Below are positions 17,120 to 56,450 of a stretch of DNA of 64,000 nucleotides, one piece after another (the stretch's first letter is position 1; every line of letters starts with the position of its first letter). Position numbers and translations under genes: made by a program. This DNA comes from Escherichia phage AV124, in sequence record OR352954; one strand, given 5' to 3'. A model generated the notes under the pieces. That model did not search any database, was not told the DNA's origin, and saw nothing but the letters and a program-made list of their open reading frames with translations.

Positions 17120-17531
17120 TGTATCTGGTTATGAGGGTATTTATCAGGTAGATACTGATGGTAATGTTTGGTCTCTTGAAAGGTGGGTTGAGAAAACCCG
17201 CCACGGAAAAAGAACAGCACCACAGCTTGTCCCTGCAAAGAAAAGAAAGTGTTCTGAGCATGGCACAGGTTATCTGACTGTTAGATTGGCAAATAAAGGT
17301 GTTATAAAGACTTTCAGAGTGCATAGGTTGATTGCTGAAGCTTTCCTACCTAACCCGCTTAACAAGCCCTTTGTGAATCATAAGGATGGCGATAAGAGGA
17401 ACAATAAGGACTCTAATCTTAAGTGGGTAACCGAGAAAGAGAATACCGAACATGCTATGGAAACAGGTCTGAAGCCTGAAAATCTGAGAGACCCCGTTAC
17501 TGGACGTTATGTAAGCGAACAACTGGAATAA
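17106..17531 (+). CDS. HNH homing endonuclease (NUMOD4 + HNH_3)
   Basis: GYEGIYQVDTDGNVWS, VHRLIAEAF, VNHKDGDKRNN..NL. Confidence 0.65.
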   Translation: MLRVDVSGYEGIYQVDTDGNVWSLERWVEKTRHGKRTAPQLVPAKKRKCSEHGTGYLTVRLANKGVIKTFRVHRLIAEAFLPNPLNKPFVNHKDGDKRNNKDSNLKWVTEKENTEHAMETGLKPENLRDPVTGRYVSEQLE

Positions 17532-42029: not shown

Positions 42030-43855
42030 CGCCAAATCTCCTGAAGCGGGAGGATACAATCACCACCCCTGCGTGAAAGGTTGCACATCCCATTAACACA
42101 CATAATATGAAGGGTCTCCCCGATATGTCGATAAAACACCATTTCATAAACACATTGCCGTAACGTGTCGATGCCATAAACATTACGGTGCGAAGCACTT
42201 TGCCAAAGGCAAAAACCTCCGGTGCTATAAATATATCGCCTTGGGCGATTAGCCAGAGGCTAACCCGTACACGGGTAAATATATCGCGTAAACAGGCCCC
42301 TGTTTTCCCCGTATAACCACCCCTTCCCCCCGTGGGGAAATCAAAACATACCCCCTGCCGAAAATATCACTTGCCGAAAAATATCATGGCTTGGTCCTTG
42401 GGTAAAAAATATTGTATTCGCACCATCTGCGGTGTTAGACGGACAGCTCCGGGCGTCAACTATCTTTACGGATCTTTACAAAATATCATGGGCAAGGTCG
42501 ATCCGGTTCCCGGTTCCTCGGGGCCTCTTCAGGCATGATAGTTACTTGCCGAAACTAATAATAATTGGGTGTGTCAGATAGCAAGCTTATGGTTTGCCAG
42601 CTTAGAGCACGATTTGCTATTGACTTGTTTATATTTATATGAATTACACCATTTAACATAAAACACGTTATACGCACTGACCAACAACGCATAGCAGACT
42701 AATAATGCCCCAATGTTACCAGTGTGACGCATAGGACAGCCGCTTCAGGTCATTACATGGTGTGACTGTTACTGTGGTGATAGTTTCATATGTGATTATT
42801 CATGTTTTAGGGTTGTTTTGTGAATGAGACGACGAATGAGAATCATTATTATTTCGATTTCGAATTCAATTTCGAAATGAGAATCATTCCGCAAATATAA
42901 ATATTTTGTAAATTTATAAATAAAAGCTTGACGAGGGAAGAGAATCGTGTTTAGCAATACATACTCTTTGAGCATCATTATCATTTGCGACTAATTCCCA
43001 TAAACCCTTGCTACGCAAGGGATTGATAGATATTTTCGATAATAAAAACACTTGACACTTCAGATAAAATCATGCTCAAAAACAAGCCTTTTCTCATAAG
43101 ATACGATCATCATTCTAATGGTTTGTCAACCATTAAACACGAATTAATTTGATTAAACTGCTAATTGTTTACAGGGTTTACTATCATCAGCGACACAATA
43201 ACACAATGCCCTTCGGGTTGTTTTCGCCACGGAAAACAATGTCCAGATTGACCAAAGGGGTTTTGTGAATCCCCTTTATCTGGACACAATAACACTAGGG
43301 CGATCAACGATAGTTGATCGGTGTTATCGTGGCGATGTGATAAAGTTTCATTGCTAATCATTACAGATGTAATGATAATATACTGTGATAATTTCGTCCT
43401 TGATCGTAGCGTCTACGAGCCACGATAACGCGAACGAGAATGCGATTTGTTCGCATTTGAGTTACCCTAGTGTTATTGTGTCGCTCGCTCCGCTCGCGCC
43501 ACTCCCCACGATTCGCGAACGAGAAATTTTATTGACAGAAAATGATTTCTATGCTCATAAAAAGCCAGTTCACACAATGAGTTAGATGAGGAAAGTTATC
43601 ATTATAGTGATTTATGCTCATATTCACTTCCAGTGCATAGAAATTCATGATTTATTCAGTTAATAACATGCGTTATTAATTAGGTGGGGTTGTGGGGTGA
43701 AAAGCCAGGACCGACACACAATTAAACGCAATATAAAGCGTTTTGAGCGTGGTTATCGGTTACCCTCATCATGGTATGTCTTGTGTTAGATCTCAATTAT
43801 GCACTTTTTTGCATAGCGGCGGGGCCGTGGTGTGGGTTGTTTATGGTGTGGATCT
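42030..43855. other. ~1.9-kb non-coding, palindrome- and repeat-rich region (candidate origin / regulatory region)
   Basis: No convincing ORF; numerous direct repeats, palindromes and nested inverted repeats. Confidence 0.5.
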
Positions 43856-49917: not shown

Positions 49918-50703
49918 TCAAATGATACGTTCGAATTTATCGAATCTTTTTGCGGATCTGCCGTGAACGTCGATCACGACGTTGGCGCGTTTACCATCGC
50001 ATAAGCCGCAATCTAAGCAGCTAATGTTGTGAGTGGTATTAACGCAAGTGATCTCGCCCTCCAGGCGGCGCATATTGTGAGTTTTCACGCGGAAAGTTTT
50101 ATAACCCTTGCGCCATGCTGTGATCGCTTGTTTTTCCGTATCGGCTGAGATCTGGCAAATGGTAGCGATACGATGATCAAAATTCTTATGGTGGATCTGG
50201 TGAGTGTACCCCGTATTGCCTTGCGTATGGTTGACCATGTTTTGCCATACCTCAAAAGGGACCGCCGCCGGATCGCCGTAGGAACCTAAACGGATATAAC
50301 GCCCCGCAAAATGTACCAGATCGCGAGAATCAAGATCTTTATAATTGCCTTTTTTGTAAGACTTCCAGACTGACAGCGGGGCCTGGTGTAATGTCACATA
50401 ACAAGCGCCGTTTAAGCTGGTACGATGGGGACACATACCGCAAACAGATGAATCAAGTTTTTTAGCGCTCGCTTCCAGTGGGCTAACATCCTCACGCATG
50501 ATCCAGGTTTGAACCATATCGCCAGTCTTATCGTTAGCGGTTGACATTGTAGCAATGACCACGATCGGGGCCTTATCCAGGACTGACGGGCCTTTATATA
50601 ATACATAACCCTTTTTTGCTGTGGATTTTTTACCCGGTACACTATGCACGATCTCGGATTCAGAGTTGACAACCAGACCATTATTAAGTTTAAACGTAGA
50701 CAT
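49918..50703 (-). CDS. hypothetical Cys-containing protein
   Basis: 261-aa ORF with CGMCPH and CLDCGLCDG motifs. Confidence 0.5.
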   Translation of the reverse strand: MSTFKLNNGLVVNSESEIVHSVPGKKSTAKKGYVLYKGPSVLDKAPIVVIATMSTANDKTGDMVQTWIMREDVSPLEASAKKLDSSVCGMCPHRTSLNGACYVTLHQAPLSVWKSYKKGNYKDLDSRDLVHFAGRYIRLGSYGDPAAVPFEVWQNMVNHTQGNTGYTHQIHHKNFDHRIATICQISADTEKQAITAWRKGYKTFRVKTHNMRRLEGEITCVNTTHNISCLDCGLCDGKRANVVIDVHGRSAKRFDKFERII

Positions 50704-50806
50704 TGCTTTTTACCTCGATTTATCGCGGCCCTTGCCGCCTGAGAAAACACTTTAGCAAGGGCGCTAACTGAAAGCAAGCGCCCAGGGTAAAATATTTTAT
50801 TTAGCT

Positions 50807-50964
50807 AGTGATAAGGTTTTTCCGTGGTTGATCCCAGGGATAACCCATTGCCCGGCGCCATCTTTAACAGGCTGACGTAAACGCGCCGCCGTGGTTACCT
50901 TGCTGTTAACATTACGGGCAAAAGCGCGGGCCTGGTCACGGGTAGTAAAAGAAATATTTTTCAT
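50807..50964 (-). CDS. small protein (first gene of leftward block)
   Basis: 52-aa ORF not in track; GAGG RBS; promoter-like TTGACG-N17-TAATAT upstream on minus strand. Confidence 0.3.
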
Positions 50965-51193
50965 GTTGTAGCCTCTTCAGTAGATGTAATTTTGTTTTGC
51001 CCTGGATTTTGGAGATCCTCACCTTTCCGGGCCAGATTGAATCCTCATCGCTTGCGCTTTACTCCACGCCCCACTATTTCAACCGGGGGCCTTGGATTCA
51101 CCCCGCCCCGGTGAGATGAATATTAAGTGATAGCGATCCCCGCGTCAATCCCCTGGATGAAAATAAATTAAAAATATTTTTGTTCGTGTGGGC

Positions 51194-51224
51194 TTGCGCC
51201 CCGGCCTGGTTAGTGTACTATATA
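51194..51224 (+). promoter_or_regulatory. promoter A (TTGCGC-N16-TACTAT) with GC hairpin in spacer
   Basis: First of three similar promoters; precedes small ORF 51253. Confidence 0.45.
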
Positions 51225-51252: not shown

Positions 51253-51438
51253 ATGGAAAACGCAAAAGTGATAACGAGTGAAACAATGGTTACCCTTTCC
51301 ACCTGGGAGACGGAAAGCGCAGCGCCCCAGGTTAGGATCGTGCCTTTACCCTTCGCGTTGAAAATGTATAATGCAGGATTTACCAGGGTGAGAATTGTTG
51401 CGGAAAATGGGGAAGTGATCGCGGACTCCTGGGAGTAA
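51253..51438 (+). CDS. small protein
   Basis: 61-aa ORF between promoters A and B. Confidence 0.4.
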   Translation: MENAKVITSETMVTLSTWETESAAPQVRIVPLPFALKMYNAGFTRVRIVAENGEVIADSWE

Positions 51439-51458: not shown

Positions 51459-51487
51459 TTGCAAACGGCCCCGACCTGGGTTATATT
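51459..51487 (+). promoter_or_regulatory. promoter B (TTGCAA-N17-TATATT)
   Basis: Same architecture as A; downstream ~120 nt lack an ORF. Confidence 0.45.
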
Positions 51488-51619: not shown

Positions 51620-51649
51620 TTGCAACCGGGGGTAGGATATACTATATTA
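51620..51649 (+). promoter_or_regulatory. promoter C (TTGCAA-N18-TATATT)
   Basis: Third member of the tandem set. Confidence 0.4.
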
Positions 51650-51818
51650 TACACATAGCGGGAACATTGAAACCGGAGTACAAAACACCGGGGGTGCCTA
51701 TCATTCAGCAAATGAGAATGATTACCATTCAAATAACTAAATAAGAATGCTTCTCATTCAACAAAAAATTTAAATATTGACTTCTGATTTTTCGTGTGAG
51801 ATACTGAGCGATACCCCT

Positions 51819-52030
51819 AAAAAATTTTTTCGCGTAAGAAAACAAATACGATCTGGAAATTGAGATCTCGATCGAGAACCGGGCCGAAAAATTTTTTCTA
51901 GAGAGAAAACAATTACGATCTCGATTTTGAAAAACCGATCGAGAACCCGGTTGATACAGAGAAAAATTTTTTGATAGTGAGAGCAAATACGTTTTTGAAA
52001 ACGAAAAGTCGATCGAGAACCCAGAGTTTG
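51819..52030. repeat. three tandem ~70-bp direct repeats (candidate iterons / regulatory array)
   Basis: Each unit has AAAAATTTTTT, AGAAAACAA(A/T)TACG and palindromic TCGATCGAGAACC core; unit starts ~51819, 51887, 51963. Confidence 0.6.
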
Positions 52031-52257
52031 CTACCTGAAAATTTGAGTTATCTTTTTCGCTTATTTGAGATAAATGTCCAATCTTGATGCCAAGATACCT
52101 ATAGCAATCATACACTTGTGCATCATTTTTCGACATAGCTCCCACAAAGGTTTGAGATAATCTACTCCCAAAACTCTTGATTTAAAAATTTGCAGGGAAG
52201 ATGAAATCCGTTTCAAAAACGATTTTGAAAACCATTTCGAATTTTAAAATATCTTTG

Positions 52258-52290
52258 GGATATTAAATATCATACAAATATCCCACAGTT
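52258..52290 (-). terminator. hairpin downstream of leftward gene 52298..53134
   Basis: gggatatt-N15-aatatccc inverted repeat in AT-rich context. Confidence 0.35.
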
Positions 52291-52297
52291 TTGAATC

Positions 52298-53134
52298 TTA
52301 TCTGGGATTGAAAATATCCTTCCATTTAATAATATCATAGGTTGTGCCTGTAGAAATTTCATACATTTTAATCTCATCTGGGGTCGGATTACAAATGTCA
52401 ATGAAAAATGTGCTCAATACAGAAATCAGGAACCGTTCTGTCTTTCCTGGGACTGTGTAAACAATACGCATATCACCGGGAATAGGAGAAATGGCCAAGG
52501 AGGTAGGGCCATTCATAAGTGTAACGGTATTATCAGCAATCTTGATACGACCATCGACACCATACACCAAATCATGGACAGAAGAATAATGTGCAAGCAC
52601 CTCTACTACCGGGTTACCGACAAGGTTCACGAGGTAATCAAGATACAGGTCTCGCCATCCACGATTCTGCATCATGTACCGTATATGGGAACCTCCATCA
52701 AACATCTCGCCCAGTTGCTCTGCGATCCAGGCAACACCATTTGCAATGTCTTCTCTGTTCCAAGTGTTGTCGATATCTAAAATATCCTTGCTGAACTTGT
52801 TCAAACGGCGCATAGCATTGAGTACATACTCACCTCTTTCAACGAAGGCACGTTCAGTGTCTTTTGCATAATCGAGAAGCCCTTCAACCTCTGATCCTGT
52901 GGCGTATTGCTTAAGGTCATCAAGCACACTTTCCACACTGGCCTTGGCCTGATTGAAAGTATACTCATCAGTCTCGTCAGTAGAGAATTCTACACCACCA
53001 AGGGCGTATGTAGCATCATCATAGAGCTTTTTGAGATCATGACGCATATCCGGGAAGTCATAACCAACCTTGTTATGAGGGATAAGTTCAAGAGTGTTTA
53101 AAATAGTAGTCATCGTATATCGTCCTGTAATCAA
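52298..53134 (-). CDS. hypothetical protein
   Basis: 278-aa ORF. Confidence 0.5.
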   Translation of the reverse strand: MITGRYTMTTILNTLELIPHNKVGYDFPDMRHDLKKLYDDATYALGGVEFSTDETDEYTFNQAKASVESVLDDLKQYATGSEVEGLLDYAKDTERAFVERGEYVLNAMRRLNKFSKDILDIDNTWNREDIANGVAWIAEQLGEMFDGGSHIRYMMQNRGWRDLYLDYLVNLVGNPVVEVLAHYSSVHDLVYGVDGRIKIADNTVTLMNGPTSLAISPIPGDMRIVYTVPGKTERFLISVLSTFFIDICNPTPDEIKMYEISTGTTYDIIKWKDIFNPR

Positions 53135-55460: not shown

Positions 55461-55668
55461 TTGTTGTCGGCCTCGCGCCGCCCCCAGTTAAGTCGTTCAT
55501 AAGATTCACTGTCGCCCATGCCTCCATCACATAAGCGAACAAGTTCGCACTTCCACACACATCTAACACCCGTAAACGGGTTAGCTCATGGCTAATCCAC
55601 TTGTGGATGACTGAAGTGATGAATCACTTCCTCTTGAAACTAACTATACACTAACTAAACCATAGATC

Positions 55669-55780
55669 AAGATCTTTTTATAAAGATCTATGTTTTATGT
55701 TTTTAAGATCTTATGTGTATTATTTTATATATGTATTCATGTGCAAAATTTGCATGACACGAGACGCAAAATTTGCATCA
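55669..55780. promoter_or_regulatory. operator-like palindromes (AGATCTTT-N4-AAAGATCT; two copies of TGCAAAATTTGCA)
   Basis: Palindromes between leftward genes, adjacent to wHTH protein gene. Confidence 0.4.
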
Positions 55781-56056
55781 CAAGACGGTGTACTCATACG
55801 TACTCATCCCTCTGCGTTCTGTAGATAGATACCCTAGTGCCACGAGGTTTTTTATGGATGTACTGATTGACCTTTCAGACACACCCGTAGCTTCACTAAT
55901 CGTTTTATAACTAGCAAAGTATTTCTTCCCTTTTGTCTCTAAGTATCCTGCCTTGTACTTTATGTGGAGCAGGACACGAAGATCTGTGCATGACAGGTTC
56001 TTATCATGCAGCTCTTTTTCGTCACAAGCTACCCACTTCTCACTCTTTTTTGGCAT
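55778..56056 (-). CDS. winged-helix DNA-binding protein
   Basis: ASYKTISEATGVSERSISTSIKNLVALGYL HTH signature. Confidence 0.45.
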   Translation of the reverse strand: MPKKSEKWVACDEKELHDKNLSCTDLRVLLHIKYKAGYLETKGKKYFASYKTISEATGVSERSISTSIKNLVALGYLSTERRGMSTYEYTVL

Positions 56057-56450
56057 CCAAGTATTTCTCCAAATGAGTGAGTACAACCCCTTGGGCATAC
56101 TCTTGAGATGCATCATTGTGGTGAAGAACAGCCAGATCACATCCAAGTTTGTGCAAACTCCTCTCGAATGGAGACAAGTGTGTCATCATAACTTCGACCA
56201 GACTAAGCTCTTCTTCTGTGATGTGGAGGGGATCATCCGTGAAATCCCTGGAGATGAGAATCTCTCTCTCACCTCCTTCTCCGTGACCATAGACCTCGAC
56301 AATCCTCCTGTTACAGAAAATTTCGTACTGATAGCCGTTCCAATCTTGACCGTCTTGGGCTTCAAAGTTCACAATGAGGCAACAACCAAGCCCCAACAAG
56401 AGTACCTGGAAATCCAAATTGTGAACAATTTTTTTATTTAAAGTGTTCAT
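56040..56450 (-). CDS. hypothetical protein
   Basis: ORF; co-oriented with neighbours. Confidence 0.4.
   Translation of the reverse strand: MNTLNKKIVHNLDFQVLLLGLGCCLIVNFEAQDGQDWNGYQYEIFCNRRIVEVYGHGEGGEREILISRDFTDDPLHITEEELSLVEVMMTHLSPFERSLHKLGCDLAVLHHNDASQEYAQGVVLTHLEKYLDAKKE

Follow-up and report, generated by a model that had tools for sequence, protein, structure and literature searches.

The 64,000-nucleotide stretch of Escherichia phage AV124 analysed here (record OR352954; hereafter the window, to which all coordinates refer unless another genome is named) carries at 51819-52024 an array of three direct repeats in the same orientation (+ strand), which is an essential, single-copy, non-coding and cis-acting module of the subfamily Vequintavirinae. 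The array is tentatively proposed to be a transcription-activated replication origin of unusual build, with slightly less than even confidence. This proposal fits best because the array is essential, unique, non-coding, apparently read by a specific factor, located beside the AT-richest DNA, fed by a promoter and not a packaging site. A first-pass annotation of the same DNA had suggested an origin or a regulator-binding array. The single copy, the non-coding nature, the conservation, the constraint, the reading by a factor, the adjoining AT-rich DNA and the intolerance to insertion in the relative Bas54 agree with that suggestion, whereas iteron spacing, a requirement for GATC and a nearby initiator that varies together with the array do not. 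No account of the array, nor of any Vequintavirinae origin, was found in the literature searched.

To judge from its sequence, the phage is an rV5-like myovirus of about 143 kb, of the Mydovirus type within the Vequintavirinae. In a sequence search, the 2.2 kb around the array matched 45 phage records, the best of which belong to the genus Mydovirus (94%–97% identity) and infect Klebsiella, Raoultella and Proteus, namely KB57, KpS8, KPP-1 and Mydo; the complete KPP-1 genome (143 kb) is 96.5% identical at the array locus. The homologous locus was also taken from seven phages of five further genera: PVP-SE1, 4MG and EspYZU14 (Seunavirus), Av-05 (Avunavirus), pEp_SNUABM_01 (Henunavirus), CR9 (Certrevirus) and rV5_ev156 (Vequintavirus). 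Variable-site statistics refer to seven sequences of the Mydovirus group, and the position weight matrix (PWM) used to score the elements was built from the non-Mydovirus genera only. The array consists of the following units.

51819-51885, + strand: unit 1, an A6T6 linker and the 41-bp element 51842-51882 (ACAAATACGATCTGGAAATTGAGATCTCGATCGAGAACCGG), PWM score 47.0 bits
51886-51960, + strand: unit 2, an A5T6 linker and the 41-bp element 51909-51949, PWM score 52.7 bits
51961-52024, + strand: unit 3, an A5T6 linker and the 41-bp element 51983-52023, PWM score 57.9 bits

The three tandem units of about 70 bp that had been placed near 51819, 51887 and 51963 were borne out by two methods. Tandem Repeats Finder reported 51820-51947 with a period of 67, 80% matches and a score of 172, while a repeat search returned three in-register 64-nt copies starting at 51820, 51887 and 51961, with identities of 100, 80 and 69% and spacings of 67 and 74. 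The A5T6 motif claimed for each unit is present in all three, and so is the palindromic, GATC-containing core, which reads TCGATCGAGAACC at 51868 and 52009 and CCGATCGAGAACC at 51935 and occurs nowhere else in the window. The motif AGAAAACAA(A/T)TACG, also claimed for every unit, holds for units 1 and 2, whereas unit 3 reads GAGAGCAAATACG. Within each unit lies a gapless 41-bp element, AAATACG-N12-GAAAA-N2-CGATCGAGAACC, with the cross-genus consensus AAATACG-W-T-Y-T-N-GA-N4-GAAAA-N2-CGATCGAG-W-ACC, and it contains the sub-sites TACGWTYTNGA and CGATCGAGWA, which are related and separated by about 20 bp. In a core-anchored alignment across genera, 30 of 30 units are free of gaps over the 41 bp, while the length of the linker varies and the A5T6 motif is wholly lost in CR9. 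The functional unit is thus the 41-bp element and not the whole 70 bp, because the elements align without gaps while the linkers vary.

Conservation in relatives, which the first-pass annotation had named as a check, was found throughout: exactly three units are present in every genus examined, that is, in Mydo-, Seuna-, Avuna-, Certre-, Henuna- and Vequintavirus, and no variation in unit number occurs among 36 Mydovirus records. The module of about 600 bp to which the array belongs is intact in all of these genera despite differing flanking genes, with the order palindromes, promoter, three elements, variable spacer, 12-mers and AAATATC boxes. The array itself, with 4.2% variable sites, is the least variable of all segments of the locus; the adjacent coding sequence of 271 amino acids shows 5.9, 4.4 and 17.3% at codon positions 1, 2 and 3, and the other non-coding parts range from 8 to 34%. 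One Salmonella phage record, PQ002170.1, stops within the array and labels an 80-bp terminal feature as attR, which most likely reflects an assembly that broke off in the tandem repeat rather than an attachment site; this record is classified under Demerecviridae, yet its locus is PVP-SE1-like.

The element is also unique. On the complete KPP-1 genome, the PWM finds exactly three sites, at 47–58 bits, the next best scoring 5.9, and in IMG/VR the element occurs in only 11 contigs of 37–152 kb, mostly as long as Vequintavirinae genomes. Mimicry of a host site and carriage by satellites were considered and rejected: among 100,044 bacterial species, each represented by one genome, 37 isolated matches turned up in unrelated bacteria, none of them in Enterobacterales and none forming an array, and E. 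coli genomes had no match. The only match in PLSDB, at 17393-17455 of CP057073.1, lies in a non-mobilizable E. coli “plasmid” of 137.6 kb with an rV5-type hub, and this record probably represents a Vequintavirus genome deposited as a plasmid, whether a contaminant or a carrier state.

The way in which the units differ from one another points to a reader. Over the variable middle part of the element, a given unit resembles its counterpart in other genomes (0.71) more closely than it resembles the other units of its own genome (0.62), from which it follows that the units are orthologous and the triplication is old. The core shows the opposite, with a similarity of 0.87 among the units of one genome but 0.78 for counterparts in different genomes, and so does the left block (0.80 against 0.75). 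All three cores of CR9 carry GACCC, and every unit of an Erwinia phage carries TCCA and CYYTCRAG, with zero GATC. Since the recognition blocks alter together in each lineage, they are probably read by a sequence-specific and lineage-specific factor, which would be a DNA-binding protein.

The same Erwinia phage array indicates that the Dam site, which had been noted in each core, is dispensable, as the array is kept there without any GATC. In AV124, the stretch from 51850 to 52011 (165 bp) holds six GATC sites, a density of at least six per 250 bp that is reached in about 0.5% of 250-bp windows, and a spot near 49945 reaches seven. This cluster, together with the DNA methyltransferases encoded by these phages, the reported Dam methylation of the relative CB7 (PMC7344957) and the motifs that the array region has in common with the terminal-repeat region, could suggest a packaging (pac/cos) site with Dam-sensitive GATC clusters like P1 pac. 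Such a role is highly improbable, because the array persists in Erwinia phages without GATC, the terminase genes are far away, and the terminal repeat of KPP-1, a 514-bp direct repeat at 116,316-116,829 of that genome reported from coverage and PhageTerm (PMC9862379), maps to 42438-42951, about 9 kb from the array. Moreover, the authors of HIDEN-SEQ, a transposon-based mapping of essentiality, described in Bas54 a separate insertion-free intergenic region of 2.5 kb between convergent genes (bioRxiv 10.1101/2025.11.20.689424), which looks like a terminus-type region, by gene order only.

The terminal-repeat region has features of its own. It sits where the + and - gene blocks converge and shares its motif vocabulary with the array region, including the 12-mers TTCGATTTCGAA/TTCAATTTCGAA, and AAAATATCATGG boxes occur at 42378, just outside the terminal repeat, and at 42480. 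Just inside the repeat, 43189-43300 and 43465-43485 hold perfect inverted repeats of 16–18 nt (GACACAATAACAC...) and short repeats.

The indispensability of the array comes from Bas54, which is Escherichia phage MaxBurger (Vequintavirus) and is covered by the HIDEN-SEQ data (bioRxiv 10.1101/2025.11.20.689424). The corresponding region was placed at 81,180-81,786 of Bas54 on the basis of synteny in gene lengths with rV5_ev156 and of a reading of the sequence. There, bas54_0101 equals the AV124 array locus by synteny and sequence and spans unit 1 of the rV5-type array together with the promoter; both bas54_0100 and bas54_0101 are annotated on the strand equivalent to the minus strand of the window. 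The transposon insertions were distributed as follows.

bas54_0099, flank: 18 of 21 TA sites hit, 220 mean reads, non-essential
bas54_0100, units 2 and 3: 1 of 3 TA sites, 5.0 mean reads, not classed by the authors
bas54_0101, promoter and unit 1: 0 of 11 TA sites, 0.0 mean reads, Essential according to the authors
bas54_0102, Fur-like box and upstream GC-rich leader: 5 of 15 TA sites, 12.7 mean reads, strong fitness defect
bas54_0103, flank: 12 of 14 TA sites, 152 mean reads, intermediate
Bas54 replication genes: DNA polymerase, 0.0 mean reads; primase-helicase, 6.0 mean reads

The read counts of the open reading frames (ORFs) over the array are therefore on a par with the values for DNA polymerase and primase. 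The authors treat bas54_0101 as a protein gene; it is read here as non-coding DNA or its transcript. The homologous segments of bas54_0100, bas54_0101 and bas54_0102 are broken in rV5_ev156 (one is without a start codon, one contains a stop and one is frameshifted), so these ORFs are probably spurious and the indispensable entity would be non-coding. All three (Bas54 81475-82064) also have non-ATG starts and odd composition.

The classification of bas54_0101 as an essential gene is one of the arguments that could be made for a coding region, in which the array would encode small minus-strand proteins (for example ORF 51729-52145, Mydo gp054, PVP-SE1 gp202/203 or bas54_0100/0101) and the repeats would be protein repeats. 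In most genomes a stop-free minus-strand frame does span the array, and ORF 51729-52145 matches phrog_25933 at 1e-41. However, this match is circular, because PHROG families derive from annotations, and the open frame is compositional, because stops are often absent from two of the three minus frames. The conserved core falls in different frames, owing to the spacings of 67 and 74; the variable sites are spread 6/6/6 over the codon phases, whereas the real neighbouring gene shows an excess at third positions; and KB57 has a 1-nt deletion in unit 2. Annotations disagree on strand and extent, with minus-strand ORFs in some records, one + strand ORF and none in several. With the broken rV5_ev156 homologues added, a protein product is hardly credible.

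Transcription enters the array from a promoter immediately upstream, preceded by two palindromes.

51713-51756, no strand assigned: two Fur-box-like 7-1-7 palindromes, TGAGAATGATTACCA (51713-51727) and TAAGAATGCTTCTCA (51742-51756)
51777-51805, + strand: promoter P4 (promoter scan), TTGACT-17-GATACT with an upstream TG (extended -10)

P4 points into the array, with a predicted start near 51812, a few bases ahead of unit 1. In alignments, Seuna-, Avuna- and Henunavirus have a promoter in the equivalent position though its sequence differs, and across genera its distance to unit 1 downstream ranges from a few to about 30 bases. The Fur consensus in the 7-1-7 model of Baichoo and Helmann is TGATAATnATTATCA. 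Across genera, the palindromes have 0–3 mismatches to this consensus, are perfect in phage 4MG and constitute the best-conserved piece of the region between genera. Fur-box-like sites with at most two mismatches number four in 64 kb, three of which lie in this region or the terminal-repeat region. The boxes stand about 20–65 bp upstream of the -35 hexamer of P4, not over the core promoter, and the motif recurs at 42837, 42878 and 42969, upstream of a rightward promoter-like TTGACG (identified by eye) near the terminal repeat. With Fur-box-like operators at both the hub and the genome terminus, host iron status may be linked to phage development.

The surrounding region had been described as a non-coding hub of about 1.3 kb between two leftward transcription units. 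The array is indeed non-coding, whereas the hub contains a + strand ORF of 61 amino acids at 51253-51438, which matches DUF7170 (E 9e-26), and rightward sigma-70 promoters. Besides P4, three more rightward sigma-70-like promoters lie within the leftward gene block: one at about 51194-51224, identified by eye, precedes the DUF7170 ORF, and those at about 51459-51487 and 51620-51648 yield GC-rich leaders without an ORF. In Bas54, it is the counterpart of that leader in which insertions bring a strong fitness defect. The packing of several sigma-70 promoters directed against the flanking genes, the palindromic operators upstream of P4 with the same motif before the TTGACG site near the terminal repeat, the concerted change of the recognition blocks, and the inclusion of the promoter itself in the insertion-free region of Bas54 would all suit an essential transcriptional control hub. 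Binding sites of a phage or host regulator, Fur-like operators and four rightward promoters would then govern early transcription, either by separating the two leftward operons as a roadblock or insulator or as a switch that closes early promoters. This explanation is considered unlikely, though it deserves some weight. In Bas54, each of the early genes alongside can be lost on its own, so an essential target gene is not apparent; the element occurs once per genome and is therefore no general promoter or operator motif; and the AT tract with its extra sub-sites has no obvious role in such a hub.

This AT-rich tract, which had been noted downstream of the repeats, was borne out as the lowest-GC 300 bp of the window and comprises several features.

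52025-52200, no strand assigned: spacer, conserved in Mydovirus (8% variable sites) and not across genera
52036-52343, no strand assigned: AT-rich tract, candidate DNA-unwinding region
52203-52241, no strand assigned: 12-bp periodic GAAAACCATTTC-type repeats (Tandem Repeats Finder, repeat search)
52247-52318, no strand assigned: four AAATATC boxes and a GGGATATT/AATATCCC inverted repeat

The lowest 300-bp window, 52036-52335, has 30% GC against a mean of 44%, and the 200-bp minimum, at 52170-52180, is 27%, with at most 0.05% of windows lower. The spacer includes the start of the spurious minus-strand ORF, and its variable sites are distributed 3/3/3 over the codon phases. The left sub-site of the element, as CGWTYTNGAAA, has nine copies in the window, five of them in the hub against 0.1 expected, and the run of 12-mers holds an inverted pair of it (CGTTTTTGAAA on the minus strand at 52211 and CGATTTTGAAA on the plus strand at 52220). 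The AAATATC boxes are similarly concentrated, as 4 of the 18 copies in 64 kb fall within 52247-52318 where 0.2 are expected; the last one overlaps the 3' end of the 271-amino-acid gene, and the boxes are kept as CAAATATCA in other genera. Of the motifs pointed out earlier, the inverted repeat was confirmed, with 12-nt arms at 52253-52264 and 52277-52288 that are 92% complementary, and the repeated TTTTGAAAAC was found exactly twice (inside 51992-52002 and 52222-52232) and, read by eye, once in near-exact form.

A promoter immediately upstream, with all elements in its orientation, also raises the question of whether the essential product is RNA. In that case, P4 would transcribe the array into an unstructured, A/U-rich tandem-repeat RNA whose three 41-nt modules bind or sequester a protein, and the transcript might act as a sponge or decoy, as an anti-defence mimic, as a replication primer or as an antisense RNA to the 271-amino-acid gene. 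The insertion-free TA sites of Bas54 are mostly in the promoter and 5' leader, and there is a precedent in the subfamily, since the pseudo-ToxI of phiTE (Certrevirus) is a non-coding tandem repeat RNA that defeats a host system (PMC3475682). However, the phiTE units are near-identical, 36 nt long, fold as pseudoknots and expand under selection, and they lie at a different, non-syntenic locus in the tRNA region, whereas the array has diverged units of 67–75 nt (69%–80% alike, unlike type III antitoxins), always three in number, with no signal of structure and a constant count among the 36 Mydovirus records.

Folding analyses point in the same direction. For the candidate hairpin within the unit, 70% of cells are paired, compared with 68.5% after shuffling, and 94 of 500 shuffles reach as high a value; with RNAalifold, the unit gave no fold and the 287-column array one of only -7.35 kcal/mol, its covariation term being positive; and single-sequence folding of both strands gave z values of -1.25 and -0.61, no better than shuffles. 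A conserved fold with compensatory changes, as expected of a structured non-coding RNA (ncRNA), was not seen in the array, nor were the near-identical repeats of about 34–45 nt with a processing site at each junction that characterize type III antitoxins. There was no Rfam match at a permissive E-value, no tRNA according to ARAGORN and, on the + strand, no intrinsic terminator downstream of the array. CR9 lacks the A5U6 junction, and the inverted copy of the sub-site suits DNA recognition. An RNA as the essential product is accordingly judged improbable, though not negligible. Its more specific form, in which a Fur-box-gated host promoter produces an RNA whose three 41-nt modules capture a host or phage protein, is less probable still; if true, this sponge would be a new kind of essential phage ncRNA, with phage development tied to host iron.

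Returning to the replication origin, the array shares with the iteron origins (lambda ori, P1 oriR, pSC101 and R6K) a set of direct repeats, all in one orientation, next to AT-rich DNA, repeats read by a specific factor, and a module that is single-copy and essential; clustered GATC is a further likeness to P1 oriR and oriC. By comparison of their parts, its layout nevertheless resembles the promoter-plus-AT-tract type of T7 and T4 more closely than the classic iteron type. The primary origin of T7 consists of promoters 1.1A and 1.1B and an AT-rich region, and T4 oriF and oriG of a middle promoter and an unwinding element. Similarly, P4 is a strong promoter that leads into the AT minimum, and the array lies at about 6%–7% of the genome length from one end of a terminally repeated genome. 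These phages, KPP-1 by its annotation included, also encode a DNA primase/helicase, which the rV5 genome paper calls podovirus-like (PMC3606486). The array differs from the T7 and T4 origins in its host sigma-70 promoter, in the three recognition elements between promoter and AT tract, and in the Fur-box-like operators upstream.

A possible mechanism can be outlined. A sequence-specific, probably phage-encoded protein would bind the three 41-bp elements, and P4, a host RNA polymerase promoter flanked by Fur-box-like operators, would transcribe through the bound array into the 300-bp AT tract, which carries further copies of the sub-site. Transcription and the bound protein together would open this tract or leave an RNA primer, after which the phage primase-helicase and DNA polymerase would be loaded; replication initiation would then be the essential function, and transcription its activator. 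The + strand of the array is 58.7% purine, within the top 6% of windows, which is suggestive at most for a persistent RNA hybrid or primer. Skew analysis does not help in locating an origin: GC skew in the window follows the direction of transcription and is uninformative, and for rV5 such an analysis was tried and only transcription-linked shifts were found (PMC3606486).

Several points weigh against an origin at the array. The “iteron-like spacing” that had been invoked does not hold, since iterons are 17–22 bp long and recur at about 22 bp, whereas the elements here are 41-bp composites 63–78 bp apart across genera. No cluster of DnaA or IHF boxes was found at the array, nor a helical (10–11-bp) A-tract periodicity as a sign of intrinsic bending. 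The Bas54 essentiality is resolved per annotated ORF and could reflect the loss of an essential promoter or RNA. Unlike iteron origins, the array has no cognate initiator gene in cis: domain searches and the comparison across genera revealed no conserved DNA-binding gene adjoining it, and the AlphaFold model of the 271-amino-acid neighbour, with a predicted local distance difference test (pLDDT) score of 57, is unusable. The nearby initiator-like protein, a winged-helix protein of 98 amino acids (55778-56074, - strand; HTH_36, 1e-10) whose N-terminal part matches phrog_8102 “replication initiation protein” (E 1e-30), does not vary together with the array. Its gene and the repeats next to it are swapped as a cassette, both among close relatives and from genus to genus, with Mydoviruses carrying an allele 100% or 38% identical to that of the window while the array is unchanged, and the protein is therefore not the reader of the array. 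PVP-SE1, of another genus, carries the AV124-type allele at 91%, and the protein was detected in Mydo- and Seunavirus only, whereas the array is present in all six genera examined.

The winged-helix gene brings with it a second candidate site, which likewise counts against the array as origin. At its 3' end (55743-55785) are allele-specific repeats: TGCAAAATTTGCA occurs twice in the window and in PVP-SE1, the Mydo allele has GTGTCCGGGG three times, and the 4MG allele a different pair. Adjoining these repeats is a conserved AT-rich stretch, 55640-55735, with 15%–20% GC, five GATC and two GATCT sequences that resemble the oriC 13-mers. The module 55640-55790 is either a rival origin candidate or an operator.

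Vequintavirinae are widely isolated for therapy and biocontrol, and two candidate origins can now be proposed for them, the array at 51.8–52.3 kb and the module at 55.64–55.79 kb. The former is universal in the subfamily, as far as the six genera examined show, and indispensable in the relative Bas54. At least one published “essential gene of unknown function” is probably a cis element without coding function. Knowing an origin or an essential cis module precisely would be useful for genome minimisation, for rebooting and for infection-dependent plasmids.

With regard to the neighbouring DNA, the 271-amino-acid gene to the right has no match in Pfam, NCBIfam or PDB, only close homologues being found, and the genes to the left differ between genera. 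Between a leftward promoter (51148-51120) and a gene of 55 amino acids lies a GC-rich stretch, 50785-51120, with a 26-nt imperfect inverted repeat. Its counterpart in Mydo and 4MG is annotated as a “DNA ligase” of 96–98 amino acids and looks misannotated.

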